A stretch of 32,000 nt of DNA from Iningainema tapete BLCC-T55 (GTDB taxonomy: Bacteria > Cyanobacteriota > Cyanobacteriia > Cyanobacteriales > Nostocaceae): assembly GCF_014698965.1 (NCBI RefSeq), contig NZ_JACXAE010000050.1, forward strand, positions 109,439 through 141,438, given 5' to 3'. The notes under the pieces were generated by a model that was given only the letters and a program-made list of their open reading frames with translations, made no database searches and was not told where the DNA came from. Both the position numbers and the translations under genes were made by a program. Positions within the stretch are counted from its first letter, which is position 1, and each line of letters opens with the position of its first letter. Positions 5,224 to 32,000 of the stretch are shown here, piece after piece.

Positions 5224-6093
5224 ATGTTCGTCACAGAAAGTTCTGTACAGAACGAGTACATTAATACCAACGGAATTAAGCTGCATTACGTCACCCAAGG
5301 GAAAGGTCCCTTAATGCTGATGTTACACGGATTTCCTGAATTTTGGTACTCTTGGCGCTATCAAATACCAGAATTTGCCAAATCTTTTAAAGTCGTCGCT
5401 CTTGATTTACGTGGCTACAACGATAGCGATAAGCCAAAAGAAAAATCAGCTTATGTAATGGATGAATTTATTCAAGATGTTGAGGGAGTAATTAGAGGTT
5501 TAGGTTATGACAAGTGTGTTTTAGTAGGGCATGATTGGGGAGGTGCTATTGCTTGGAGTTTTGCTTATGCTCATCCGGAGATGGTAGAGCGATTAATTAT
5601 ACTCAATCTTCCTCACCCTGCTAAATTCGCTCAAGGCTTACTCACACCGCAACAGTTGCTACGTAGTTCTTACGCTTTCTTCTTTCAACTTCCTTGGCTA
5701 CCGGAATTACTCTTACAATTATCAGATTATCAACAGATTGAAACTATTTTCAAAAGTATGGCTGTTGATCAAAGTATTTTCTCTGATGTAGATATTGAAG
5801 CTTATAAAAATGCTGTGGCAAAGCGCGGTGCTTTAACAGCAATGTTGAACTATTACCGTAATGCTTTTAAGCAAGGAATGCTGAACAAAAGTTGGGGAAT
5901 TCTGGAAGTATCAACGTTGCTGATTTGGGGAGAAAAGGATAAGGCGCTGGGTAAGGAACTAACCTATGGTACAGAAGCTTACGTGAAAGACTTTCACATT
6001 AAATATATTCCCAATTGTAGTCATTGGGTGCAGCAGGAAAAGCCTGATTTGGTGAATCAGTACATGCGCGAGTTTCTGGAGCTTTGCATTTAA
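5224..6093 (+). CDS. Alpha/beta hydrolase, epoxide-hydrolase / haloalkane-dehalogenase-like (Asp nucleophile)
   Basis: HGFPEFWYSWRYQIP (oxyanion HGxP), GHDWGG (Asp nucleophile elbow) and a C-terminal CSHWVQQEKP catalytic His. Confidence 0.85.
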   Translation: MFVTESSVQNEYINTNGIKLHYVTQGKGPLMLMLHGFPEFWYSWRYQIPEFAKSFKVVALDLRGYNDSDKPKEKSAYVMDEFIQDVEGVIRGLGYDKCVLVGHDWGGAIAWSFAYAHPEMVERLIILNLPHPAKFAQGLLTPQQLLRSSYAFFFQLPWLPELLLQLSDYQQIETIFKSMAVDQSIFSDVDIEAYKNAVAKRGALTAMLNYYRNAFKQGMLNKSWGILEVSTLLIWGEKDKALGKELTYGTEAYVKDFHIKYIPNCSHWVQQEKPDLVNQYMREFLELCI

Positions 6094-6113
6094 GTGTAAG
6101 GCTCATAGCTTTC

Positions 6114-6183
6114 GGGTACTGGGTACTGGGGATTGGGCAAAGTTGTTTCTTACCCAATCGCCAATCGCCAATCCCCAATCCCT
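6114..6183. repeat. STRR-like heptamer arrays forming an inverted pair (probable terminator) downstream of the hydrolase gene
   Basis: gggtact gggtact ggggatt ggg ... cccaatcg ccaatcg ccaatcc ccaatcc c. The two arms are mutually complementary heptamer arrays. Confidence 0.8.
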
Positions 6184-6456
6184 TTTAAGCTAACCACCGT
6201 TTCTGTCTTACTGCATACCCTAATCAACGCCCATAGGTATACATAAGCGTTAACTTCAATTGTTACTATTGTACGTAGCGATAGTTAATCAAAGTGCATC
6301 AGTGTACAACTAATAGCAGTTGTCCTCATCACTACTAATAATGATTTGTGTCACATCGCATTAGTGGTATCAATCAACTACCACGTCAACAATAGTGGCA
6401 TAATAAAGGTGTGAGGACAAGAACGGAAGCAGTTTGAGGAAAAAGGGGAAAAACAT

Positions 6457-19428: not shown

Positions 19429-21104
19429 ATGGATTTTGAAATAGTTCTACAAGTAACTGATGCCGCAGTTTTTGCCAAGATACGTAGACATTTAAAAGAC
19501 ATCGAAATCGCCATTCTTCGAGGATCTTGGCAAGGTCAAAATTATGATGATATCGCCAAAATTTATGGCTATACTCCCAAATACCTCAAACAATACGTTG
19601 GTCCGAGGTTATGGCATCTACTTTCAGAAGTACTGGGAGAAAAGGTAAGTAAAACAAACTTTCAAGCAGCACTGGAGAGGCGGGCAACAGTGAGGGAGTG
19701 GGGGAGTACAAGAGTGGGGGAATCTAACCCCCCTCTTCCCCCCGAAGTTCGGGGGGATTAAAGGAGGGTACAGATTGGGGAGAGGCAATTGATGTATCTG
19801 TTTTTTTTGGTCGCCATGATGAACTTACTACCCTCACTCAATGGATAATACAAGATCGCTGCCGTTTGGTAACAATATTAGGTATGGGAGGCATTGGTAA
19901 AACTACTCTCGCCGTTAAACTGGCACAACAAATCCAAGGTGAGTTTGAATACCTGATTTGGCGAAGTCTCCGTCATGCCCCACCCTTAGTCTCAATCTTG
20001 ACAGATTTAAACGAATTACTGACAAAAGAGTCACAAACCGTCATACCAGAAACTGTAGATTGTCAAATCTCCTGCCTGCTAAAAATCTTGCGGCGCAAGC
20101 GCTGTTTGCTCATCCTTGATGATTGGGAGACGGTTCTAAGTAGTGGAGACATAGCTGGCTACTATCGCCAAGGCTATGAAGGTTATGGAGAGTTGCTCAA
20201 GCGTGTAGGAGAAGAACCTCACCAAAGCACATTGGTATTCTTGAGTCGGGAAAAACCAATAGAATTAGCGGAACTTGCGGGTGTTACTTTACCTGTGCGT
20301 GTTTTGCTTCTCAAAGGTTTTCCGCGACAAGATGCTATAAAGCTTTTGGCGACAAAAGGTTTTTCTGAGACAGAAAAAGGTTTAGAAGAACTAATTCAAC
20401 TATACCGAGGTCATCCTACGGCGTTAAAAATTGTTGCCACCACAATTAAAGATTTATTTAATGGTAACATCTGCCAATTTATGCAGCAAAGTTCGTTAGT
20501 GATTGGAGATATTTTTTCTCATCTTTTGAACGAACAATTTGCACGTTTATCTTCTTTAGAAGAAAAAATTATGTACTGGTTGGCAATTGAATGTCAGCCA
20601 ATTTCACTTGAGCAATTAAAAACCAACTTAGGGGTTGGGGTATCTAGTTCTGAGTTACTAGCAGTGCTAGAATCTCTTTCCAGGCGATGTTTGATCGATA
20701 AGGCTAGTCTTTTGCTAATGGAACAAGAACAAACCTCGGTTGATAGTACAGCCTTGTTCACCCTCCAACCTGTGATCATGAAATATGTTACTAATTTATT
20801 TGTAGAAAAAATCTGCCAGAATATTATTGAAGTAATTAGAACCAAGTCTATTGAAAAACTAGGGTTACTTAGAACCCATGCCCTCGTTAAGCAGGAATCA
20901 GATGATGTCCAGCAGTGTCGGCAAGTGCGTCTCATACTTACACGGATTCAGGAGCGTCTACATTTGGTTATGGAAAATACCAATGCTATAAAAGAGCAGC
21001 TACAAAATCTGCTTTCACAATTACGTGGGTATCCCGGACGAGGAAATGGATACGCAGAATACAATCTACAAAAGCTGCTGAGAATAACAGAAACAGGGTG
21101 GTAA
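19429..21104 (+). pseudogene. STAND NTPase (HTH-like N-terminal cap + NB-ARC + winged helix, no C-terminal repeat array), split into two frames by a 1-nt offset
   Basis: Frame 1 (19429-19761) encodes ...AILRGSWQGQNYDDIAKIYGYTPKYLKQYVGPRLWHLLSEVLGEKVSKTNFQAALERR. I recognise this as the N-terminal cap recurrent on cyanobacterial NACHT/NB-ARC-WD40/TPR proteins; the database name, from memory, is 'vWA-MoxR associated protein N-terminal domain'. Frame 3 is open from 19728 and reads ...GTDWGEAIDVSVFFGRHDELTTLTQWIIQDRCRLVTILGMGGIGKTTLAVKLAQ. It carries the P-loop, Walker B CLLILDDWE, LVFLSREKP, GxP motif YRGHPTALKIVA and winged helix IMYWLAIECQPISLEQL. It could also be two real CDSs (19429-19761 and 19866-21104) or an assembly error. 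Confidence 0.7.
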
Positions 21105-21109
21105 CCGCC

Positions 21110-22750
21110 ATGATTTGTCCAGGAGTTATACTTCAAAATCGCTTCCGAGTTGTCCGTCAAATTGGTTGCGGTGGTTTTGGTCAGGTGTTTGAGGTGGATG
21201 ATGGCGGTACACTAAAAGTACTCAAAGTTCTCAGGTTAGAGCGTTTTTATAACCCAACAGTGAAAAATAAGGCGATCGCCCTATTCCAGCGAGAAGCCCA
21301 ATTGTTGAGTAAAATTCGGCATCCCGGCATTCCGCTGGTAGAGCCACCTGGATATTTTACTTGGAGTGAAGGTACAAGTGAGCCGTGGCACTGTCTAGTG
21401 ATGGAGAAAATACCAGGTACTAACTTAGAAGATTGGTTGCAAGCCAGAGGTAATCAACCCATCACCACAGAACAAGCCTGTGAATGGTTAACTCAGTTAG
21501 TAAAAATTATTCAAGAATTACATAAACATCAGTATTTTCACAGAGATATTAAACCATCAAACATTATGCTCAGACCAAACGGGCAGCTAGTGCTGATTGA
21601 TTTTGGTGCTGTGCGAGAAGTGACAACAAGCTACTTACAAAAACAAAAAGGTAACGAAACAGGTACTGTACTTATTTCTGCTGGTTACACACCGTCAGAA
21701 CAAGCTGAAGGTTATGCTGTGCCACAATCAGATTTTTTTGCTCTAGGACGTAGCTTTGTCTATTTACTTACTGGTAAATCACCATTGGAGTTTCCCAAAA
21801 ACCCCCAAACAGGAGAATTAATTTGGCGTGACGAGGCAAATGTATCACAGCATTTGGCAGATTTGATCGAGCGCCTCATGGCTCCTTTTCCTGGACAAAG
21901 ACCGCAAAATTGCCCAGAAATATTACAATACCTACAACAAACTCAACCATACTCCCTTTTGTCATTCGCGCAGACGATACCAGGTATTAGCTCTCTGGTA
22001 TCGAAGTGCAATGCCAAAGATACACCACGCCACAACAAAGGTTTTTATTTAGCTTTAGCTAGTTTATTGTTGTTAGGGGTTGGTGGCTTGTGGAATTTTT
22101 CCCCAACTATTGCTTCCCAATTAAATCGACAAGGGTTTGCTGACTATAAAAACAAACGTTTGAATGCTGCTGAGTTTTACTACAAATTAGCTCTAGTTTT
22201 TCAGCCCAAAAATCCCAAAGCTAATTACAACTTGGGAGTGCTTTACGAAGATCGACAAAATATGCCTAAAGCGCGTGCAGCTTACGAGATATCTGTTCAG
22301 CAGGGTTTTGATAAAGCTTATAACAACTTAGCGCGATTGTATATTTTGGACAACAAATCGGCACTCGCAATGCCTCTGCTCAATTCAGGTTTGCCACTTG
22401 CTCAAGAAACCACAACTAAATATGCAATGTTGAAAAACCTTGGTTGGGCGCAAATGAAATTGGGGCGTTACCAAGAGGCGGAAGTTAATCTGAAAAAGGC
22501 GATTGAACTGAGTGGCACGCGCTCTAGTGCTCATTGTCTCCAAGCTATGCTTTTAGAACGTCAAGGTAGTGTTTCTGTCGCTGCTTGGGATAAGTGTGAT
22601 AAATATTACAAGGACAATGATCCAGATGTAAAGCAGTGGATAGCGTCTCGTACCAAGAAAGATGAAAATTCAAAGGATTACTCTGTTGTATCCTCAGTTG
22701 TTAATGAGCGCGAACCGCAAAGACACAAAAAGAAAGGAATAGGGTTATGA
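21110..22750 (+). CDS. Membrane Ser/Thr protein kinase with extracytoplasmic C-terminal TPR/Sel1-like repeats
   Basis: The first ATG after the upstream TAA (21102-21104) is at 21110. Gly-loop IGCGGFGQVFEV, catalytic loop HRDIKPSNIM, IDFG, TM helix FYLALASLLLLGVGGLWNF, then TPR-like repeats (AEFYYKLALVFQPKNPKANYNLGVLYEDRQNMPKARAAYE...). Confidence 0.9.
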   Translation: MICPGVILQNRFRVVRQIGCGGFGQVFEVDDGGTLKVLKVLRLERFYNPTVKNKAIALFQREAQLLSKIRHPGIPLVEPPGYFTWSEGTSEPWHCLVMEKIPGTNLEDWLQARGNQPITTEQACEWLTQLVKIIQELHKHQYFHRDIKPSNIMLRPNGQLVLIDFGAVREVTTSYLQKQKGNETGTVLISAGYTPSEQAEGYAVPQSDFFALGRSFVYLLTGKSPLEFPKNPQTGELIWRDEANVSQHLADLIERLMAPFPGQRPQNCPEILQYLQQTQPYSLLSFAQTIPGISSLVSKCNAKDTPRHNKGFYLALASLLLLGVGGLWNFSPTIASQLNRQGFADYKNKRLNAAEFYYKLALVFQPKNPKANYNLGVLYEDRQNMPKARAAYEISVQQGFDKAYNNLARLYILDNKSALAMPLLNSGLPLAQETTTKYAMLKNLGWAQMKLGRYQEAEVNLKKAIELSGTRSSAHCLQAMLLERQGSVSVAAWDKCDKYYKDNDPDVKQWIASRTKKDENSKDYSVVSSVVNEREPQRHKKKGIGL

Positions 22751-23664
22751 GGTATGCTGTAATGGGTGCTAAGGGGAAACAAAGAAGTATTTTTCTCCTA
22801 TTTTTTGCTGTTTTGTTTTTGCTTTTGATTTTGGTTGTACCTGAGCGAATCGTGGCAGATGGTGGTAGGAGTAATGAGGTACTGGTTGCACAAAATTGTG
22901 GCAATGGTGATACCTCTGTAGCTCGTAGTCCTACTGATATTCCTTATGTGATTAGTCCTCGCAATACTTTATTATTATCTAATCAGCCAAAGCTACGCTG
23001 GAATTCTCTTTTGGATGCTAAAAGTTATACTGTAAGTCTGGTTAAGGGTGACAAAACTGTTTGGGAAACGACGGTAGGTAAAAATGAAGTTGTGTATCCA
23101 GGAAAACCAGTACTTGAGGCTGGGGTAGAGTATTTATTAAGTGTTAAAGCTGATAGTGGTAAGTCATCGGCAGAAGTACAAGAATCTGCACGGGGATTTA
23201 GGTTATTGCCTACTTCTGTTGCTCAAGTTGTTAAGGTGGCGATCGCTCAATTGAATAGTCAACAAATACCACAGAAGGTGAGAGGATTGGCGAGTGCTTA
23301 TATTTATAGTGGTGCTGATTTGAAGTCGGAGGCGATTGAAACGCTTGAGGCAATGGTGGCTGGTGGGGTTAAGGATGTTAGCGTGCATCATCAATTGGGG
23401 AATCTTTACTGGCTTACGGGTGTGAGTTTGCTCTCGGAGATTAATTATAAGGAAGCTGTTAAGTTGGCGAAGTCTTCTCAGGATTTGCCAGAATTGGCAG
23501 AGATTTCTTCTGCTTTGGGTAGGTTGTATGTGGCGATTGGGGAGAAAGGTGAGGCTGTTAAATGGTTTAGTCAAGCACGTGATGTTTATAAGGCTTTGGG
23601 TAATACGCTACGGGTTAGGGAGTTGAATGGGCAGGTGGATTTGATGAAGAGAAGTTTGATTTGA
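22747..23664 (+). CDS. Signal-anchored periplasmic protein: beta-rich N-domain + C-terminal TPR-like repeats
   Basis: Its ATG overlaps the kinase TGA (ATGA at 22747-22750). Hydrophobic anchor IFLLFFAVLFLLLILVV. C-terminal HHQLGNLYWLTG...ALGRLYVAIGEKGEAVKWFSQARDVYKALGN is TPR-like. I recognise no specific family. Confidence 0.7.
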   Translation: MRYAVMGAKGKQRSIFLLFFAVLFLLLILVVPERIVADGGRSNEVLVAQNCGNGDTSVARSPTDIPYVISPRNTLLLSNQPKLRWNSLLDAKSYTVSLVKGDKTVWETTVGKNEVVYPGKPVLEAGVEYLLSVKADSGKSSAEVQESARGFRLLPTSVAQVVKVAIAQLNSQQIPQKVRGLASAYIYSGADLKSEAIETLEAMVAGGVKDVSVHHQLGNLYWLTGVSLLSEINYKEAVKLAKSSQDLPELAEISSALGRLYVAIGEKGEAVKWFSQARDVYKALGNTLRVRELNGQVDLMKRSLI

Positions 23665-24119: not shown

Positions 24120-24262
24120 TGGAAAAAATCGCTCTCATGCGCTTTATGCTATGCTGGTATAACCGTTAGACTTGTAGTCTACAGCATTTCACAGCAGGGT
24201 TGCAGCGGCAGCGCGATTTTTCCCAAAAATTCAAGATATGCAATTTTGAGACGTTATAGCTT

Positions 24263-24457
24263 ATGACTACCAATTTAGTCAAAAATATTACTGATAAGTC
24301 AAAATCTGAGCATCCTTGGATGAAATTTGCGGGTAAGTATAAGGATGACCCACAATTCGATGATATGCTGGCGGATATAGAAGTATATCGACGTGAACGA
24401 GATGCAGAAATGGCAGAATATTACCGACAACTGGACGCTGAGGAAGAGCAAGCGTGA
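24263..24457 (+). CDS. Small acidic antitoxin-like protein (partner of the PIN gene)
   Basis: 64 aa; PWMKFAGKYKDDPQFDDMLADIEVYRRERDAE matches a motif I recall from cyanobacterial antitoxins encoded upstream of VapC genes. Its stop overlaps the downstream GTG (GTGA). Confidence 0.6.
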   Translation: MTTNLVKNITDKSKSEHPWMKFAGKYKDDPQFDDMLADIEVYRRERDAEMAEYYRQLDAEEEQA

Positions 24458-24714
24458 GTTTAGCTTTAGTATTAGCTTACACACAATTGCAAGAAACATT
24501 AGAAGATTTTAAAACTATCAACGTACTCGAATTCAATCCAAATGCTGCTAATTGCTACACAAAATTACTCAAGCAAAAAATTCGTATCGGTACGCAAGAT
24601 TTACGAATTGCGGCAATTGTAACTTCTCTTAATGGCATTTTAGTAACGCGCAACCAACGAGATTTTTTGCCTGTACCTGGCTTGCACTTTGAAGATTGGA
24701 CAATCGAGGATTAG
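24454..24714 (+). pseudogene. VapC-type PIN-domain toxin, N-terminally truncated (C-terminal ~2/3 only)
   Basis: ...IGTQDLRIAAIVTSLNGILVTRNQRDFLPVPGLHFEDW is the canonical VapC C-terminus. The frame is closed by TGA at 24439-24441, so about 40-50 N-terminal residues, including the first catalytic Asp (DTN motif), are missing. Confidence 0.7.
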
Positions 24715-24747
24715 TGCGCTCAAAATGACATTGAATAATTAATTACT

Positions 24748-25008
24748 ATGCAGAAAACTGACACAAACGCACTTAAACCTATCTTGGACTATTTACCAGA
24801 ACGTATTAAACAGGCAATAGAGGAATACTCTCAAGAAACCCAACTTCCCCCGGAATTGGTGATTGAGTTGGCGATAGCTCATTTCTTAGATGTAGACTCT
24901 GTGACTTTTGACGATTGTCGGATTGAGTCACCAGGTATTCTTAGAGAACAGAATAAAATCCTCAAGATTCAGTTAGCAGCTATCGAGGGTGCTCGCTCAA
25001 GTACGTAG
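24748..25008 (+). CDS. Conserved small protein, copy 1 (86 aa; possibly RHH/DUF2811-like)
   Basis: It is a paralogue of 31725-32000. Most nucleotide differences between the copies are synonymous, so both copies appear to be under purifying selection. LPPELVIELAIAHFL resembles RHH/antitoxin-like helices, but this assignment is weak. Confidence 0.7.
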   Translation: MQKTDTNALKPILDYLPERIKQAIEEYSQETQLPPELVIELAIAHFLDVDSVTFDDCRIESPGILREQNKILKIQLAAIEGARSST

Positions 25009-25066
25009 TTCATCATTTTCTCCTAACCTGTCATCAGCGAGATAAAATTAAGGTAAAGCTTTTCTC

Positions 25067-27934
25067 ATGCGTTTACCCGATCTTAACTGGCGCTTGGCGA
25101 TCGCTGCAATGCTTCTCGGACTGACTTCGCCACTGTATCCACAACCAGTATTAACAACCACTATCTCCCATTCAACCTTTCAACAAGCAAAGCAATTGTA
25201 TGACTTGGGGGTTGAGCAATATAATCAACGTCAGTTCTCACAAGCTCTCAAAACTTATCAAAAAGTTCTCGAAATTTATCGGCATGGTAAACAAGAGGAT
25301 ATTGCCAAAACTCTCTACGCTATCGGAATCACTTACATCCAACTAGCTCAATATCAAAACGCCAGCGATTTCCTCAATCAAGCATTGGTACTTTACCGTA
25401 ATATAGGCGAGCGCCACAGAATTTGTGATACTCTCAATAGCTTGGGGGCAGTTTACAATCATCTCGGTAATTATTCACAAGCACTCTCTTACTATCAGCA
25501 AGCTTTGGCGATTAGCCCAGAAGTAGGTGTAACTGCTGATATCCTTAATAATATTGGTGGAATCTATCAAGCTACAGGGCAGTATAATAAAGCATTAGAA
25601 TACTATCAGCGCACTCTTGATATCCACCAGAAAATTGGTAATAAGACAAGTATAGCCCACACTCTTAACAGTATTGGGGGAGTGTATTATGAACAGGGGC
25701 AGTATTCCCAAGCACTTAAGCTTTCTCAGCTTGCTTTAGCGAATGCTCAATCTGCTCAAAATTTGCGAGAGCAAGGCAATATTCTTAATAACATTGGATT
25801 AATTGAGAGTGAACTCGGTCAATATATTTCAGCTATACAATATTATCAGCAAAGCTTGGCAATCCGCCGCAAAATAGGTGACTATTCAGGCGTTGGTACG
25901 ACACTGAATAATCTTGGCTTCGCCTACAATCACATGAAGAAGCATTCCCAAGCCTTAGAATTTTATCAGCAAGCTTATTCTGTTTTTAGAAGTATTGGTA
26001 ATCAGGCAAATGTTGGTAAAACTCTCAATAATATTGGCTTTACTTATCAAGCTTTGGGGCAGTATTCTCTAGCACTCAAGTCTCTTGAAGAAGCGTTGGC
26101 TATTCTTCAAAAAGTAGGCACTCGCCCTTCGGTTGGGCGTACTCTCGATAGTATAGGAACTGTTTACAAAAGTTTAGGTAAGTATTCCCAAGCTTTAGAA
26201 GCATATCAACAAGCGTTAGTCATTAGTCGGGAAGCAGCGCAACGGCAAACTGTTCGAGTTATCTTAAGTAATATAGGCGATGTGCTAGCAAAACAAAACC
26301 AGCCAAAATTAGCCATTATTTTCTACAAGCAATCAGTTAACGTTACCGAAGCCATTCGCAAAGAATTGCGATCGCTTGCACCTAAACAACAGCAATCTTA
26401 CACAGTAACCATAGCTGATACCTATCGCCGACTTGCAGATTTGCTGTTACAAGAAGACAGAGTGTTAGAAGCACAACAAGTTTTGGATTTACTCAAAGTA
26501 CAAGAATTAGATGATTATCTACGTAATGTACGGGGAAACGAAAAAACTGCCTTGGGTATTGATGCATTACCACCTGAGAAACAAATTAATGATGGCTTAG
26601 ATACCATTTTAAATAGACAAATTCAACTAGGTAAAAAACTTGCTGAATTACAAAACATTCCCCTCGACAAACGCAATCAAGAGCAAGTTAACCAGATAGC
26701 ACAGATTACTAAACAACAGCAGGAAATTAGCCAAGAATTTAACGAATTTCTCAAGAGTGAGGAAGTTGTTGCGGCATTAGCACAGTTAAATTCTACAGCA
26801 AGACAGCAAAGTGTGCCTCTTCGGTTACTGAAAACCTTGCCAGATAACTTACAACGGTTGAACCAAAATGCCGTATTGCTGTATCCTTTAATATTAGAAA
26901 ATCGTTTAGAATTGGTATTAACAACGCCTTACACACCCCCAATTCGTCGTAAAGTTGAGGTGAAAAAGGAAGAACTCAACCGGGCGATTGTTGAGTTACG
27001 GCAAGCTTTAGAAAATCCCGATGCAAATGTCAAAGTTGCAGCACAAAAATTGTATAACTGGTTAATTAAACCGATAGAAAAAGAACTTGCTGCCGCCAAT
27101 GCCAAAACTATCATTTACGCGCCCGATGGGCAGTTACGTTACATTCCTTTATCTGCTTTATATGATGGTAAACAGTGGCTGGTACAACGTTTCCGTACTA
27201 ACTATATTACTGCTGTGAGTTTAACAGAACTCGACACTAAACCTTTACCAAAAATTCAAATTTTAGCAGGGGCAACTACAGGTCGTCACATTGTTACAGT
27301 TGGATCTGCTGCGTTAGCATTTTCTAGTTTACCATATGCAGGAGCGGAAGTAGAAAATTTGGCGGCGATGATGCCGGGAACTAAGAAACTTTTAGATAGT
27401 GAATTTAGTCGCGAAAAAACTATCCCTTTTTTGAACAATTATACTTTTGTACATATGGCGACTCATGCCATGTTTGTGACGGGAAAGCCAGAAGATTCTT
27501 TTATTTTGTTGGGTGATGGTGATAAGATCACGTTGGCTGAAATTCAAAACTGGTCACTTCCTAATGTAGATTTAGTAGTTTTAAGTGGTTGTCAAACAGC
27601 TATAAGTGGTAATGGCGAAGAGATTTTGGGGTTTGGCTATCAGATGCAAGATGCAGGCGCAAGAGCAGCAATCGCTTCTTTATGGAAAGTAAATGATGGT
27701 GGTACACAAGCGTTGATGAGTACTTTTTATGCAGCGTTGCGTCAAGGCATTACCAAGGCAGAAGCTTTACGCTACAGCCAAATTGCCATGATTACAGGCA
27801 ACTACTCAGAAATAGCGCCACAAGACAGAGGAATTCTTCAATCAACACGCGATCGCTTACCGCCGAAGGTGACAGATCGTCTCAGTCACCCCTATTACTG
27901 GGCACCTTTTATTTTAATTGGCAATGGTTTGTAA
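25067..27934 (+). CDS. Secreted TPR-repeat / CHAT-domain (caspase-like) protease
   Basis: Signal-like N-terminus MRLPDLNWRLAIAAMLLGLTSPLYP, then about 9-10 TPR_12-type units (LNxIGxVYxxxGxYxxALxYYQQAL). After a coiled-coil region comes a CHAT domain with His FVHMATHAMF and Cys LVVLSGCQTA, ending HPYYWAPFILIGN. Confidence 0.9.
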   Translation: MRLPDLNWRLAIAAMLLGLTSPLYPQPVLTTTISHSTFQQAKQLYDLGVEQYNQRQFSQALKTYQKVLEIYRHGKQEDIAKTLYAIGITYIQLAQYQNASDFLNQALVLYRNIGERHRICDTLNSLGAVYNHLGNYSQALSYYQQALAISPEVGVTADILNNIGGIYQATGQYNKALEYYQRTLDIHQKIGNKTSIAHTLNSIGGVYYEQGQYSQALKLSQLALANAQSAQNLREQGNILNNIGLIESELGQYISAIQYYQQSLAIRRKIGDYSGVGTTLNNLGFAYNHMKKHSQALEFYQQAYSVFRSIGNQANVGKTLNNIGFTYQALGQYSLALKSLEEALAILQKVGTRPSVGRTLDSIGTVYKSLGKYSQALEAYQQALVISREAAQRQTVRVILSNIGDVLAKQNQPKLAIIFYKQSVNVTEAIRKELRSLAPKQQQSYTVTIADTYRRLADLLLQEDRVLEAQQVLDLLKVQELDDYLRNVRGNEKTALGIDALPPEKQINDGLDTILNRQIQLGKKLAELQNIPLDKRNQEQVNQIAQITKQQQEISQEFNEFLKSEEVVAALAQLNSTARQQSVPLRLLKTLPDNLQRLNQNAVLLYPLILENRLELVLTTPYTPPIRRKVEVKKEELNRAIVELRQALENPDANVKVAAQKLYNWLIKPIEKELAAANAKTIIYAPDGQLRYIPLSALYDGKQWLVQRFRTNYITAVSLTELDTKPLPKIQILAGATTGRHIVTVGSAALAFSSLPYAGAEVENLAAMMPGTKKLLDSEFSREKTIPFLNNYTFVHMATHAMFVTGKPEDSFILLGDGDKITLAEIQNWSLPNVDLVVLSGCQTAISGNGEEILGFGYQMQDAGARAAIASLWKVNDGGTQALMSTFYAALRQGITKAEALRYSQIAMITGNYSEIAPQDRGILQSTRDRLPPKVTDRLSHPYYWAPFILIGNGL

Positions 27935-28151
27935 ACATGGACATTTTTCGTAGTCAGGGCTTTAGTCCTTATTATCTCTGTAAAATGTAAAATTTGATAT
28001 ATTCTGAAATTTAAATAGCTAATACAAATTATACTTTGGAATAAGTCAGAAAAAAATCTGTTCAAAGGAACACACGTTTTTGTCAAAAAGCAAGTATAAA
28101 TTCACACAAAATTTGACAACAAAATAAGCAAAATAGAAAAAGAATTTAGCC

Positions 28152-30452
28152 ATGAGCAATGGTAAAAATACGAACCATAGCGGCTTGCCTAAATTAGAAT
28201 TGGAAGACAATCAAAAGGCAAGTAGGAGCAGGAACCGCTCCGCTCCCCCCTCGATCAATCTGCTGTCAAAACTTCTACAAGTGATTACAAACTTGGCAGC
28301 AAAGATAGTAACTGGACTCACCCAGCTATCTTCTCAATTGTCTAGGAGCATGAAAAGAGGCGCGTTGATCACCACGCTCCTGACAGTAACCATTATAGTT
28401 GGACACAGTGTCTCAGCGCAGATCACTGCGCTACCTCCACTTAACCAGGTAAAGGTTCCAGAACCAGATAATCTTGGGGACTTTATCCAGAACAAGGTAG
28501 CGGCGATCGCACTAGGAAAGTCTCTTTTCTGGGATATGCAGCTGGGCAGCGATGGCATTCAATCTTGTGCCAGTTGTCACTTTCATGCCGGAGCAGACAA
28601 CAGATCCAAAAACCAGATCAGTCCAGGTTTACGGGATAGAAATTTCACTACTGGAGGTGGTCCGAACTACCAACTGACAGCAGCAGATTACCCCTTCCAT
28701 AAGCTGGCAGATCCGAATAACATATCCTCAAATGTTGTTTCTGACAGTAATGACGTGACTGGCTCTCAGGGAGTCTTTAGATCAGAATTTGTTGATGTCG
28801 TTCCAGGCAGTGACAAAGACAAGGTGACGCCTCTAGAGGATGACGTCTTCAATGTGAATGGTACAAATGTACGCAGAGTAACGCCCCGCAATTCACCGAC
28901 AGTGATCAACGCAGTGTTCAACTTTCGTAACTTCTGGGACGGACTGGCTCAGAACACTTTTAACGGGGTGAATCCCTTGGGGTTGAGAGATAAAAATGCT
29001 TTTGTTTTAAAAGCAACTAGACCAAGGCGGCTAGAAGATGTGGCAATCAGTCTCAATAATTCGTCTCTAGCTTCACAAGCAGTAGGACCGCCACTCAATG
29101 CTCTTGAGACTGCGTCTGAAAACTTACCGATCGCGCCATTTAGGGTTGAAGAGTCCGAAACAGAGGATACAGTTAGTGTGTTCAACGCACAAGGTCAGAC
29201 TGTTAACAATAACGCTGATGCGGAGCGCTCAACGGATGCTAACTCCACAGAGCAACAACTTCAGGCGTCAGATAGTCCGCGTTTTAGAAGGATAGGTAGG
29301 AAACTTGGTAAGAAACTACTTTCTGTACAGCCCCTTGCTAAGCAGATTGTGGCTTATGATGACAGCGTTTTGGGTTCTTTAAGCAAATCTACTGCGCGAT
29401 CGCCTAGACCTGGTTTGAAAAAGTCTTATGAGGCGCTGATCGAAGATGCCTTCAAGCCGGAGTGGTGGCGTTCCAATATCATCATCCGCATCGATCCACA
29501 AACTGGCAAGCGAACTTTCTTGCGCAAGCCGCAGCGACGCTTGAGTACCATCGAATACACGCTGATGGAGTACAACTTCTCGCTTTTCTTTGGGCTAGCA
29601 GTTCAGGCATACGAGTCAACACTAGTGTCTGCTAATACACCATTTGACCAGTTCTTAGCTGGAAACACTAATGCTCTGACTACCCAGCAACAACAAGGTT
29701 GGAACATTTTCCAAAACAAGGGTTTGTGCATTGGCTGCCATGCCGGAGCGGAATTGACGCAAGCGTCAGTAAGCAGCGTCGCTCAAAGGGGACGAATTAC
29801 TCGTGCGCCCTTTGGTCCAAGACGCCCTGAGGACACTGGCTTCTTCAGTATCGGTGTCAGACCTGCTAGCGAAGACCCCGGTTTGGGTGGTAATGATGGT
29901 ATAGATGGTAATGATGAGTTCGGAAATCCACAGGGCAATCCACTGTCGGAGGTACGACTAGCTCAGCAAGGGACATTTCAGCAGCTCTTGGGCGAAAACC
30001 CTCCTACCCTCAATCCCCCGCTTAGCTCTACTGAACCTGTAACTGCAGACGGAGCCTTCAAAACACCGGGACTCCGCAATGTGGAACTCACTGCTCCCTA
30101 CTTCCACAATGGTGGTCAGTTGACTCTAGAGCAAGTAGTTGATTTTTACAATCGGGGCGGTGACTTTGGCGGTTTACCTGTGCTGAACCTCACACCAGAG
30201 GAAAAACAATCGCTAGTTGCGTTTATGAAAGGGTTGACTGATGAGCGAGTCCGCTTTCAAAGAGCGCCCTTCGATCACCCGCAACTGTTCGTTCCTAACG
30301 GACATCCAGGAAACCAAAACTCCGTCACCAACGATCCCAACGTCCAAACCCAAGACGGTGTTCGGCAAGCTACGGATGCTCTGTTAGAAATCCCGGCTGT
30401 TGGTCGTAACGGTGGTAATCCTCTGCCAAACTTCCTGGGAGCAACTCCCTAA
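28152..30452 (+). CDS. Di-haem cytochrome c peroxidase / MauG family protein, enlarged (766 aa)
   Basis: Two CXXCH motifs: LGKSLFWDMQLGSDGIQSCASCHFHAG and NKGLCIGCHAG. Distal motif FKTPGLRNVELTAPYFHNGGQLTLEQVVDFYNRGG. An internal ATG at 28350 (MKRGALITTLLTVTIIVGHSVSAQ, signal-peptide-like, preceded by aggag) may be the true start. Confidence 0.85.
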   Translation: MSNGKNTNHSGLPKLELEDNQKASRSRNRSAPPSINLLSKLLQVITNLAAKIVTGLTQLSSQLSRSMKRGALITTLLTVTIIVGHSVSAQITALPPLNQVKVPEPDNLGDFIQNKVAAIALGKSLFWDMQLGSDGIQSCASCHFHAGADNRSKNQISPGLRDRNFTTGGGPNYQLTAADYPFHKLADPNNISSNVVSDSNDVTGSQGVFRSEFVDVVPGSDKDKVTPLEDDVFNVNGTNVRRVTPRNSPTVINAVFNFRNFWDGLAQNTFNGVNPLGLRDKNAFVLKATRPRRLEDVAISLNNSSLASQAVGPPLNALETASENLPIAPFRVEESETEDTVSVFNAQGQTVNNNADAERSTDANSTEQQLQASDSPRFRRIGRKLGKKLLSVQPLAKQIVAYDDSVLGSLSKSTARSPRPGLKKSYEALIEDAFKPEWWRSNIIIRIDPQTGKRTFLRKPQRRLSTIEYTLMEYNFSLFFGLAVQAYESTLVSANTPFDQFLAGNTNALTTQQQQGWNIFQNKGLCIGCHAGAELTQASVSSVAQRGRITRAPFGPRRPEDTGFFSIGVRPASEDPGLGGNDGIDGNDEFGNPQGNPLSEVRLAQQGTFQQLLGENPPTLNPPLSSTEPVTADGAFKTPGLRNVELTAPYFHNGGQLTLEQVVDFYNRGGDFGGLPVLNLTPEEKQSLVAFMKGLTDERVRFQRAPFDHPQLFVPNGHPGNQNSVTNDPNVQTQDGVRQATDALLEIPAVGRNGGNPLPNFLGATP

Positions 30453-30512
30453 ATAGGAACACTCCCACCCCTTGGGTTGACTTGCTTTAAAACACGTAGT
30501 TCCTAACTGATC

Positions 30513-30538
30513 AAAAGCCTGGTAAACCAGGCTTTTTT
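30513..30538 (+). terminator. Rho-independent terminator downstream of the peroxidase gene
   Basis: aaaagcctgg taaa ccaggctttttt: a GC-containing stem followed by a T-run. Confidence 0.8.
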
Positions 30539-30702
30539 AGTGCCAATGAAGCCCAGAGATCTCTTTGACGATCTCAATGATCAACATAGCAAACTAATAA
30601 ACACGTGTATTCAGGCATGGTGGCGACTGACTCTATTTCGATGCCAGCCACCGATGATGTTAATTGTTTGTATTAGTGGCAACAACAGAGGGAAACAGCA
30701 CA

Positions 30703-31081
30703 ATGAAAGTTTCTAACTTCACCCAAGAAAACTCGGCTCTGCTTCTGATCGATCATCAAGTTGGCACTATAAAGCTCATCAAAAACTTGCCAAGCCGCGA
30801 GGTGGAGAAAAACACTCTTGCACTTGCAATCATTCGCAAAGGTACTCAAGATACCTGTGGTTTTGACAAGTAGCCAGGAGGAGCGGTTTCAAGGTTTGCT
30901 AATGACTGCTCTAGCAGAAAGTCTACCCGAAGCCTACTCGGCAAGAGTCAAACGTGCAGGCATCGTAAATGCTTGGGACGATGAGAACTTTGTCAAAGCA
31001 GTCAAAGACACAAATCGCACTAATTTAATCATGGCTAGCATTACCACGGACGTTTGCCTGGTTTATCAAGCAAGCTTCTAA
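30703..31081 (+). pseudogene. Isochorismatase-family hydrolase, frameshifted (~30830) and 3'-truncated
   Basis: Frame A reads MKVSNFTQENSALLLIDHQVGT...NTLALA. Frame B reads FAKVLKIPVVLTSSQEERFQG...RAGIVNAWDDENFVKAVKDTNRTNLIMASITTDVCLV, then a premature stop. The motifs LLIDHQ, PVVLT, NAWDD and TTDVC are in family order, but the last ~60-80 aa are absent. Confidence 0.75.
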
Positions 31082-31251
31082 CCCGTCCTGGTTCAAGGGC
31101 GAGCTAGAAGCAGCCTCAAGAACTACAATCGCTTTCATGCTCTTCTATGCTATAGTAGTAAAGCTGTTATGCTTGTATTCTAGCAGGGGTGCAGGAAAAG
31201 CGCGGTTTTTACTCAAAATCAAAGATATGTAACCTTTAGGCGCGACAGCTT

Positions 31252-31281
31252 ATGACTACTAATTTAGTAAAAAATAGCTGA
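31252..31281 (+). pseudogene. Remnant of the antitoxin-like gene (first 8 codons, then stop)
   Basis: atgactactaatttagtaaaaaatagctga translates to MTTNLVKNS*, compared with MTTNLVKNITDKS... in copy 1. Confidence 0.7.
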
Positions 31282-31347
31282 TTATACTGGGTTATGCTTA
31301 TGAAGATCGTTACCCACTCGTAGCCCCTAAACTGAAAAAATAGGAGC

Positions 31348-31719
31348 ATGACCGAAACTGAAATTAGGGAGGAAGCCGACAAGATTCTCGAAATCCTCAT
31401 TTCAAAGCCATTTGCTGAATGCTTCCCTTTAACAAGAGATTTTAAGCAGTTGCCCACATCCCCAGGTATATATGCCCTTAAATCTAGGGATGAGAAAATT
31501 CTGTACATTGGCAAATCAGGTGGGATAAGAGCGCGATTCCGAAGTGGGCATAATGCCTTAACCCAGGCTTTTTTTGATAGATTAGATCCAACAGATTTAA
31601 GAATTGCGGTTTTTGTTGTAACAATTCAACGGGTAAGGTTGCTATCAGAATTAGAATCATTAATTCTCCAAAAAATTGATAAACCAAGATATAACAGTAG
31701 AATCCCATCGAGAGAGTAA
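31348..31719 (+). CDS. Stand-alone GIY-YIG nuclease-domain protein (123 aa)
   Basis: GIYALKSRDEKILYIGKS (GIY-N10-YIG), a following Arg (IRARFRSGH), and a Glu/Asn region ELESLILQKIDKPRYNSR. aggag lies 2 nt upstream of the ATG. The stop is 5 nt before the next gene. Confidence 0.75.
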   Translation: MTETEIREEADKILEILISKPFAECFPLTRDFKQLPTSPGIYALKSRDEKILYIGKSGGIRARFRSGHNALTQAFFDRLDPTDLRIAVFVVTIQRVRLLSELESLILQKIDKPRYNSRIPSRE

Positions 31720-31724
31720 GTACT

Positions 31725-32000
31725 ATGCAGAAAACTGACACAAACGCACTTAAAAATATCTTGGACTATTTACCAGAACGTATTAAGCTGGCAATAGAGG
31801 AATACTCTAAAGAAACTCAACTCCCCCCTGAATTGGTGATTGAGTTGGCGATCGCTCACTTCTTAGATGTGGACTCGGTGACTTTTGACGATTGCCAGAT
31901 TGAGTCACCAGGAATACTTAGAGAACAGAATAAAATCCTCAAGATTCAGTTAGCAGCTATTGAGGGCGAGCGCTCAAAAACTCAAGCAATGCCGAGGTAA
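31725..32000 (+). CDS. Conserved small protein, copy 2 (91 aa)
   Basis: It is a paralogue of 24748-25008, with 4 aa differences in the first 78 residues. The TAA stop falls exactly at the window end. Confidence 0.7.
   Translation: MQKTDTNALKNILDYLPERIKLAIEEYSKETQLPPELVIELAIAHFLDVDSVTFDDCQIESPGILREQNKILKIQLAAIEGERSKTQAMPR

Follow-up and report, generated by a model that had tools for sequence, protein, structure and literature searches.

Two copies of one locus in the window

As shown in Table 1, the stretch of DNA analysed here (32,000 nucleotides (nt) of contig NZ_JACXAE010000050.1 of the cyanobacterium Iningainema tapete BLCC-T55, referred to as the window) carries two direct repeats about 7 kb apart, each of which begins with a leader and the start of a vapB antitoxin gene and ends with a small gene of a conserved cyanobacterial family. 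Between these ends, copy 1 holds the remnant of a vapBC toxin-antitoxin (TA) module, and copy 2 holds a gene for a GIY-YIG nuclease. We found that the window contains two paralogous copies of one composite, made up of a vapBC cassette with its leader and a GIY-YIG/small-gene operon, and we infer that the GIY-YIG nuclease has the small protein as its dedicated partner.

The order in copy 1 is leader, ΔvapB, ΔvapC, about 33 nt and the small gene, and in copy 2 it is leader, vapB stump, the native 5' region of the GIY-YIG gene, the GIY-YIG gene and the small gene. At the left end, the leader together with the first 8 vapB codons (24127-24286 in copy 1, 31127-31275 in copy 2) was about 76% identical. 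A repeat search of the window recovered 95 nt of this segment (24193-24287 and 31182-31276) at 78%, blastn of the leader regions gave 72% across 162 nt, and global alignment of the two leaders (136 and 125 nt) gave 94 matches, 30 mismatches and one 12-nt indel. The vapB genes start with ATGs at 24263 and 31252, and their codons 1-8 (MTTNLVKN) are common to both copies. At the right end, the small-gene repeat was 90% identical in the repeat search (24724-25000 and 31701-31977) and 92% identical across 261 nt in blastn (24740-25000 and 31717-31977). The initial annotation of this DNA had placed two shared segments at these positions with unrelated sequence between them, and both statements held, as the similarity of the ends was far above chance and the middles (24288-24723, 436 nt; 31277-31700, 424 nt) showed no homology.

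Table 1 Features of the two copies and of the genes around them, in positions of the window.
Feature	Position	Strand	Basis or remark
Leader copy 1, 136-nt 5' region of vapBC remnant	24127-24262	+	76% identical to 31127-31251, one 12-nt indel
ΔvapB, 64-amino-acid (aa) antitoxin remnant with in-frame 183-nt internal deletion	24263-24457	+	Alignment to L047/L048
ΔvapC, 86-aa PIN remnant with in-frame 165-nt deletion of codons 4-58	24454-24714	+	NCBIfam match, DNA alignment
Small partner gene copy 1, 86 aa (MBD2773298.1), nuclease gone	24748-25008	+	100% identical to a hypothetical protein of I. tapete; conserved cyanobacterial family
Leader copy 2, 125 nt	31127-31251	+	Homologous to 24127-24262
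vapB stump: 8 shared codons, one more, stop	31252-31281	+	Sequence read; same 8 codons open copy 1 vapB
Native 5' region of GIY-YIG gene, including Shine-Dalgarno	31285-31347	+	Colinear with Stigonema loci L002, L003, L005
GIY-YIG nuclease gene, 123 aa (MBD2773303.1), full length	31348-31719	+	Pfam GIY-YIG, conserved motifs
Small partner gene copy 2, 91 aa (MBD2773304.1), 5 nt 3' of GIY-YIG gene	31725-32000	+	Open reading frame (ORF); same 90% cluster as copy 1
TPR-CHAT protease-like protein	25067-27934	+	Pfam CHAT, TPR
Di-haem cytochrome c peroxidase-like protein	28152-30452	+	Pfam CCP_MauG
Broken overlapping ORF fragments	30540-30716, 30664-30873, 30818-31081	+	Between peroxidase gene and copy 2
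NB-ARC/NACHT NTPase ORF	19866-21104		
Ser/Thr kinase with TPRs	20915-22750		Overlaps NTPase ORF by 190 nt
TPR protein	22747-23664		

Copy 2 carries a full-length GIY-YIG nuclease gene

The GIY-YIG gene of copy 2 had been called intact in the initial annotation, and it was indeed full length with its conserved motifs present. The protein matched Pfam GIY-YIG (PF01541) with 26.3 bits against a cut-off of 22.6, and its best NCBIfam matches were UvrC and Cho, confined to the N-terminal domain and reaching at most 34 bits against cut-offs of at least 285. Y42 of the GIY motif, Y53-I-G55 of the YIG motif, K56, R63 and H68 were kept in at least 93% of 33 aligned GIY-YIG sequences, while Glu103 and Asn116 were found in every full-length homologue, so that the protein has the GIY and YIG motifs followed by Arg, Glu and Asn by which the superfamily is recognised. 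UvrC/Cho excinucleases are proteins of about 300-600 aa with UvrB-binding, Endo V-like and (HhH)2 domains, and the 123-aa protein falls outside that group. The ratio of nonsynonymous to synonymous divergence (dN/dS) of the GIY-YIG gene was 0.10-0.13 in comparison with Stigonema, and 0.10-0.17 with Dulcicalothrix included.

Homology of copy 2 to the Stigonema and Dulcicalothrix loci started at about 31280-31285, just past the 8 vapB codons, and it spanned the last 60-70 nt before the GIY-YIG start. The leader was not found upstream of GIY-YIG in these two genera. The vapB stump of copy 2 is best read as a deletion scar.

The nuclease and the small gene are paired across cyanobacteria

A scan of one genome per species (185,579 bacterial and archaeal species, two peptide patterns) gave 45 small-gene loci, and a direct look-up added one more. 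The neighbours of the small gene were assessed by tblastn with the window proteins. In 34 of the 46 loci, a co-oriented GIY-YIG sequence immediately preceded the small gene, and in 31 of these it was a complete ORF. These 34 paired loci span Nostocales, Leptolyngbyales, Phormidesmiales, Elainellales, Symploca, Coleofasciculus and Thermosynechococcaceae, and the relatives keep the gene order and spacing seen in copy 2. The vapB and vapC remnants of copy 1 matched nothing in any of the 46 loci.

A profile search of 1.8 billion representative proteins gave 123 members of the small-protein family. About 10 distinct 50%-identity clusters consisted of fused proteins, 188-232 aa long, in which an N-terminal GIY-YIG domain precedes a C-terminal small domain, and each fusion cluster recurred on several independent contigs. 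One annotated fusion is WP_017292018.1, a 205-aa protein encoded on the 411-kb plasmid p1 of Leptolyngbya boryana IU 594 (L050, record 120046-120663). Because of the adjacency in 34 of 46 loci and of these fusions, the small protein is predicted to be the dedicated partner of the GIY-YIG nuclease, in agreement with the linkage to a nuclease proposed for it at the outset; because it would be the dedicated downstream partner, the arrangement of copy 2 is probably the ancestral one.

Apart from very close relatives, no synteny was conserved beyond the pair itself. The pair was also found on plasmids, and one copy lay between transposase genes. Two small adjacent genes at a variable location, as in type II TA modules, were thus present, with a 5-nt gap, 34 loci, no synteny and plasmid copies. 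A metagenome scan for the small protein gave 2 extra loci only, which were uninformative. In the literature on GIY-YIG with toxin-antitoxin or ribbon-helix-helix proteins, and on Iningainema, no account of the pair was found.

Some further observations were made around the pair. On L. boryana plasmid p1, about 3.6 kb separate the fused gene from umuD and a gene for a Y-family DNA polymerase, a neighbourhood that hints at a possible link to the SOS or damage response. In five non-Nostocales loci (L034, L039, L042, L043 and L044), an ORF of about 186 aa is conserved on the minus strand about 400 nt downstream of the pair, and judged by eye it resembles a serine recombinase of the resolvase/invertase type. 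Two copies of the small gene were also seen elsewhere, in one Stigonema metagenome-assembled genome (MAG; L003 and L004) and on one contig of Scytonema sp. UIC 10036 (P0010 and P0095), one copy having a nuclease that is eroded or missing. Duplication with subsequent unequal decay may therefore be a recurrent fate of this locus in Scytonemataceae/Stigonemataceae.

The small protein belongs to a conserved family of its own

The small proteins of the two copies differed at 4 amino acids within the first 78 residues. By the Nei-Gojobori method, the comparison gave Sd=11, Nd=5, a synonymous distance (dS) of 0.26, a nonsynonymous distance (dN) of 0.028 and dN/dS=0.105, which indicates that both copies are under purifying selection and bears out the earlier remark that their differences are mostly synonymous and that both look selected.

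No sequence match for the small protein was found in Pfam, NCBIfam, PADLOC or PDB, and a PDB sequence search with the family profile returned a chance match only (E=1.7). The core of the protein reads ILDYLP, helix, turn and helix (VIELAIAHFLD), behind which come an acidic motif (DSVTFDDC) and, at the C-terminus, an amphipathic helix; relatives of 133-135 aa carry two such units in tandem. AlphaFold2 models were all-helical and of low confidence, with a predicted local distance difference test score (pLDDT) of 67 for the short form, and a pLDDT of 63 and a predicted template modelling (TM) score of 0.57 for the two-repeat form. Foldseek of the models against PDB gave no match at E<=0.001. Among the 50 matches listed for the two-repeat model, the top target-normalised TM score was that of permuted single-chain Arc (1u9p), at 0.62 with a root-mean-square deviation of 3.5 A over 89 columns and a non-significant E=3.7. 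When the family was compared by hhalign with a hand-entered set of five ribbon-helix-helix sequences, the probability was 1.4%, a value treated as uninformative.

The small protein resembles the Arc/CopG/MetJ ribbon-helix-helix proteins in its strand-like ILDYLP-helix-turn-helix pattern and in the tandem copies of the long relatives, which recall single-chain tandem forms. It differs from them in that its first element was modelled as a helix, not a strand, and in that no Pfam ribbon-helix-helix family matched. A distant member of the family (P0262, 71 aa) had a weak match to Pfam DUF2811 across the conserved core (E=0.14), and the family may be distantly related to DUF2811.

The nuclease is repeatedly lost and the small gene kept in Nostocales

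In Nostocales, the nuclease was repeatedly deleted and the small gene left intact. In L004 and L057 the 5' half of the GIY-YIG gene is missing, and in L008 and L011 about 50-60 nt of its 3' end are left. L009 and L012 share the synteny of L006, which is GIY-positive, and show a clean nuclease deletion, in which the GIY 5' region and start codon remain. In L005 (Stigonema ocellatum; 5881-6243) the first 41 GIY-YIG codons are fused in frame to the small gene, and in L012 (Calothrix sp. FI2-JRJ7; 5990-6233) the GIY-YIG start (ATG ACC) continues in frame into the small gene at codon 3-4; the deletions in these two loci would preserve expression of the partner. No nuclease trace was seen in L001, L007/L055, L010 and L054. 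In at least 8 Nostocales loci the small gene is under purifying selection without a nuclease, and the small proteins of nuclease-less loci were 78-90% identical to others with dN/dS of about 0.1.

TA genes were found next to several of these loci. Directly upstream of the small gene and in the same orientation lie ParD-ParE in Aulosira (L008) and Phd/YefM-ParE in Aetokthonos (L010), while in L005 a MazE-PIN module lies just downstream. Three genomes hold a type II TA module at the vacated position, namely Aulosira, Aetokthonos and, with its vapBC remnant, the window. That the occupant of the middle varies, as first supposed, was therefore confirmed: it is mostly GIY-YIG, and elsewhere ParD-ParE, Phd-ParE, the vapBC remnant or nothing. 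Because traces of GIY-YIG were left behind, the comparison points to insertion of TA modules next to the pair with deletion following, and not to exchange between conserved flanks.

Copy 1 carries a remnant of a vapBC module

The closest intact vapBC loci (L047/L048) aligned to copy 1 encode a VapB of 125 aa and a VapC of 141 aa. In copy 1, 61 internal vapB codons are gone, so that codons 1-11 and the C-terminal 52 remain, and ΔvapB matched nothing in Pfam or NCBIfam. A full-length 125-aa VapB is present in neither copy, as copy 2 has 8 codons left; copy 1 retains the vapB/vapC overlap, with its GTGA stop/start intact. ΔvapC covers positions 55-130 of the 130 positions of NCBIfam VapC, that is the C-terminal 60% of the model, and it reached 13.1 bits against Pfam PIN, where the cut-off is 23.6. 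Its homologues are about 141 aa long, and it was 77% identical to residues 59-141 of one of them (P0103).

The vapC deletion takes out the ILDTD and EEQ acidic motifs, which supply two of the four acidic residues of PIN domains. A complete PIN domain has about 130 aa and all four acidic residues, among them the N-terminal Asp and a Glu near residue 40, and copy 1 VapC is accordingly the remnant of a family member rather than a functional one. With residues 4-58 and two of the four acidic residues deleted, copy 1 vapBC is predicted to be a dead remnant whose VapC cannot be an active PIN nuclease. The initial annotation had described this middle as the rest of the antitoxin with an N-terminally truncated PIN gene. 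VapC is incomplete, as it said, but the loss is an in-frame internal deletion rather than a simple 5' truncation, and the antitoxin is not intact.

Since both deletions are in frame and the overlap is intact, products of 64 and 86 aa could still be made. The retained parts gave dN/dS of 0.10-0.25 against intact relatives, not above the values between intact relatives. The in-frame state of both deletions may be due to chance (about 1 in 9) or to a kept antitoxin-like function. The small protein was also considered as the antitoxin of the PIN toxin, and this was rejected, as it is absent from the other vapBC loci of the subfamily and this vapBC is absent from the other small-gene loci.

The leader belongs to vapB

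The shared codons MTTNLVKN represent the true beginning of vapB genes of this family (MTTNLVNN in L047), and for this reason the leader is evidently the 5' region belonging to vapB itself, not to the slot behind it. The initial annotation had proposed searching other genomes with the leader, and no further copy was found in the rest of the window, in any of the more than 50 related loci fetched or, by pattern scan, in metagenome contigs (0 matches). It also had no counterpart upstream of the vapBC loci L047/L048.

A consensus scan found no convincing sigma-70-like promoter in either leader. The copy 1 leader carries a terminator-like short GC hairpin with a T run at 24199-24212, and a 16-nt inverted repeat (24120-24135 and 24210-24225, 88% complementary, 74 nt apart); neither is clearly kept in the copy 2 leader. 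A known riboswitch or small RNA was rejected as an identity for the leader, as an Rfam gathering scan of the whole window gave no RNA family. A transposon around the duplicated unit was likewise rejected, as an inverted-repeat search gave short and weak pairs only.

Origin of the two copies

As a whole, the two copies are probably best explained by duplication of the composite followed by different deletions in each, rather than by swapping of nuclease cassettes. First, a vapBC cassette would have arrived just upstream of the GIY/small operon, in this lineage only. The unit of leader, vapB, vapC, GIY-YIG and small gene (about 1.6 kb) would then have been duplicated once. In copy 2, vapB would have gone from codon 9 on, together with vapC, while the nuclease/partner operon stayed, and copy 1 would have dropped GIY-YIG and undergone the two internal in-frame vapBC deletions, which removed the N-domain of VapB and the catalytic N-terminal third of VapC. 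The Jukes-Cantor distance between the leaders was 0.29, and dS between the small genes was 0.26-0.31. This equal divergence of the leader and of the synonymous sites of the small gene argues for a single duplication of the whole unit. The small genes of the window are also each other's closest relatives, with dS of at least 0.38 in all other comparisons.

Three points weigh against this history. The composite of leader, vapBC, GIY-YIG and small gene was not observed in any genome; the copies lie 7 kb apart and not in tandem, so that an extra step is needed; and the argument from equal divergence rests on about 125 leader sites and about 50 synonymous sites.

The initial annotation had read the leader and the small gene as a fixed frame, in which nuclease or toxin cassettes are swapped by recombination at the flanks. 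The two copies do share both ends and differ in the middle, other Nostocales do have a co-oriented ParD-ParE (L008) or Phd-ParE (L010) module in front of the small gene, and the link to a nuclease and the varying occupant both stand. However, in loci of the cassette-exchange or polymorphic-toxin kind the flanks are shared by many loci and the alternative cassettes are intact, whereas here the left flank is conserved in no other genome examined and is the 5' end of vapB, and one cassette, the PIN one, is a non-functional remnant with two internal deletions. The remains of the GIY-YIG 3' end in L008 and L011 mark deletion instead of swapping; copy 1 has several deletion scars, and in copy 2 a vapB stump runs into the native 5' region of GIY-YIG. 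Nor are PIN and GIY-YIG equivalent alternatives, since GIY-YIG, the neighbour in 34 of 46 loci and part of the fusions in about 10 lineages, is the ancestral and co-evolving partner of the small protein, and PIN is the dead remnant of a neighbouring TA module. We therefore regard exchange at fixed flanks as unlikely.

The leader and vapB start could instead be a mobile or gene-converted promoter fragment, copied upstream of two older small-gene paralogues of which one had GIY-YIG and the other vapBC. The two locus copies in one Stigonema MAG and on one Scytonema contig mentioned above fit such a history, as duplication could predate the leader. However, the leader and the small gene are equal in neutral divergence, the two small genes of the window are sister sequences, neither terminal repeats nor extra leader copies were found in the window or the related loci, and the end of the fragment inside vapB codon 9 has the look of a deletion scar, all of which makes this origin quite unlikely.

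As the initial annotation had suggested, the 261-nt direct repeats of 92% identity might in principle recombine with each other, which would remove the 6-kb block that they flank.

Possible function of the pair

We propose, tentatively and as a reading that falls somewhat short of probable, that the GIY-YIG protein would be a potentially harmful DNA nuclease and that its partner, a helical and possibly ribbon-helix-helix-like protein, would bind the nuclease, restrain or direct it, and perhaps repress the operon. The pair would then be a toxin-first module of the addiction or defence type. Such a module would move among genomic sites and plasmids, and its Nostocales copies would shed the nuclease while the orphan partner stays.

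Several results weigh against this proposal. Fusion proteins are unusual for TA pairs, and an architecture of a catalytic part plus a targeting part fits them equally well. The orphan partner genes are conserved across genera, which suggests a role of the partner of its own. The ribbon-helix-helix fold of the partner is unconfirmed, the models being low-confidence and all-helical and the Pfam and PDB searches empty, and PADLOC gave nothing for the small protein and sub-threshold matches only for GIY-YIG. Module-like behaviour, in turn, is suggested by the lack of synteny beyond the pair, the plasmid copies, the recurrent loss of the nuclease beside an intact small gene, and an enrichment of TA modules near the small gene. 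In 13 Nostocales-type sequences (12 loci and the window), the near flank (within 1 kb of the core, some 27 kb in total) had 4 confirmed modules, and the far flank (some 118 kb) had about 3. This enrichment of about six-fold (Poisson P of about 0.005) was noticed after the fact and has small counts.

The main functional rival is a two-part site-specific endonuclease of the homing type, in which the small protein would be a DNA-targeting subunit and not an inhibitor. The I-TevI endonuclease has its catalytic domain N-terminal to a second, DNA-binding domain. The fusions, with a catalytic N-terminus and a putative DNA-binding C-terminus, can be compared with it, and the variable contexts, the degenerate copies and the plasmid and transposase neighbourhoods also suit such an element. 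On the other hand, a free-standing homing endonuclease leaves a clean empty target in alleles without the gene, and the comparison of L006 with L009 and L012 revealed a deletion, with the 5' region and start codon of GIY-YIG still in place, not an empty target. The small gene, moreover, is kept under purifying selection in those Nostocales loci that have no nuclease, and PDB, AlphaFold and Foldseek analyses found no DNA-binding fold for its product. A homing-type system is therefore rather doubtful.

Another reading takes the nuclease for a routine DNA-repair enzyme of the housekeeping kind, accompanied by a regulator and duplicated without special meaning. In its favour are the resemblance of the nuclease to the N-terminal domain of UvrC/Cho and the presence of umuD and a Y-family polymerase gene within a few kb of the L. 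boryana plasmid fusion. We regard it as highly unlikely, as the pair is patchily distributed (45 found in the 185,579-species scan), lacks a conserved genomic context, frequently loses the nuclease and occurs on plasmids.

The toxin-first proposal can be carried further, to a view that we hold as possible and somewhat doubtful. The pair may be an undescribed cyanobacterial addiction or defence module, the first TA-like system with a GIY-YIG toxin, whose orphan partner marks a site that repeatedly gains TA cassettes (VapBC, ParDE, Phd-ParE), the partner perhaps being co-opted as a regulator shared by the modules in front of it.

Surroundings of the duplicated locus

The duplicated locus lies inside a run of signalling or conflict-type genes (19429-23664 and 25067-27934). 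The intervening block between the copies was taken as 25067-31081, and none of its genes was found near the small gene in the loci of other genomes. Two of the ORF fragments between the peroxidase gene and copy 2 (30664-30873 and 30818-31081) had no Pfam match at E<=1e-4, and the fragments from 30540 to 31081 are consistent with a broken gene. Upstream of copy 1, the NTPase ORF and the kinase ORF are possibly one frameshifted gene, given their 190-nt overlap.

Comparison with known systems and significance

Compared with polymorphic-toxin and cassette-exchange loci, the window copies are alike in having common ends with unlike nuclease-type genes between them. They differ in that the window has no secreted or repeat-containing carrier and no orphan-cassette array, in that the flanks are not conserved across genomes, and in that deletions explain the differences. 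Copy 1 resembles VapBC type II TA modules, of the subfamily in which VapC is a tRNA(fMet) endonuclease, through its overlapping antitoxin-toxin pair and through C-terminal halves that are 77-92% identical to intact cyanobacterial VapB/VapC; unlike these modules, it has both genes internally deleted and a VapB without its N-terminal domain, and copy 2 holds 8 vapB codons only.

With the GIY-YIG (URI) nucleases, including UvrC/Cho and I-TevI/Seg, the window protein shares the Tyr, Tyr, Gly-Lys, Arg, His, Glu and Asn positions, and the fused relatives have the domain order of I-TevI. It differs from them as a stand-alone protein of 123 aa with a conserved, family-specific N-terminal extension of 35 aa, which lacks the C-terminal domains of UvrC and any known DNA-binding domain, lies outside any repair operon, and is always paired with or fused to a partner without a Pfam family. 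With toxin-first type II TA systems (higBA, hicAB, mqsRA) and fused TA proteins, the pair has in common two small co-directional genes 5 nt apart, variable contexts, plasmid copies, recurrent nuclease loss with the partner kept, and TA-rich neighbourhoods. In contrast to such systems, its orphan partners are 78-90% identical across genera, above the expectation for a mere antidote. According to a 2012 survey (PMC3482391), classical toxin-antitoxin systems apparently have no URI/GIY-YIG nucleases.

The repeat structure itself is a matter of ordinary duplication and decay, and it offers a worked example of how shared ends with a different middle can arise by deletions and not by cassette exchange. 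Its analysis brought to light an uncharacterised pair, a UvrC-like stand-alone GIY-YIG nuclease with a small partner that is probably dedicated to it, conserved across cyanobacteria. If this pair is indeed an addiction or defence module, GIY-YIG nucleases would join the toxin repertoire of toxin-antitoxin systems.

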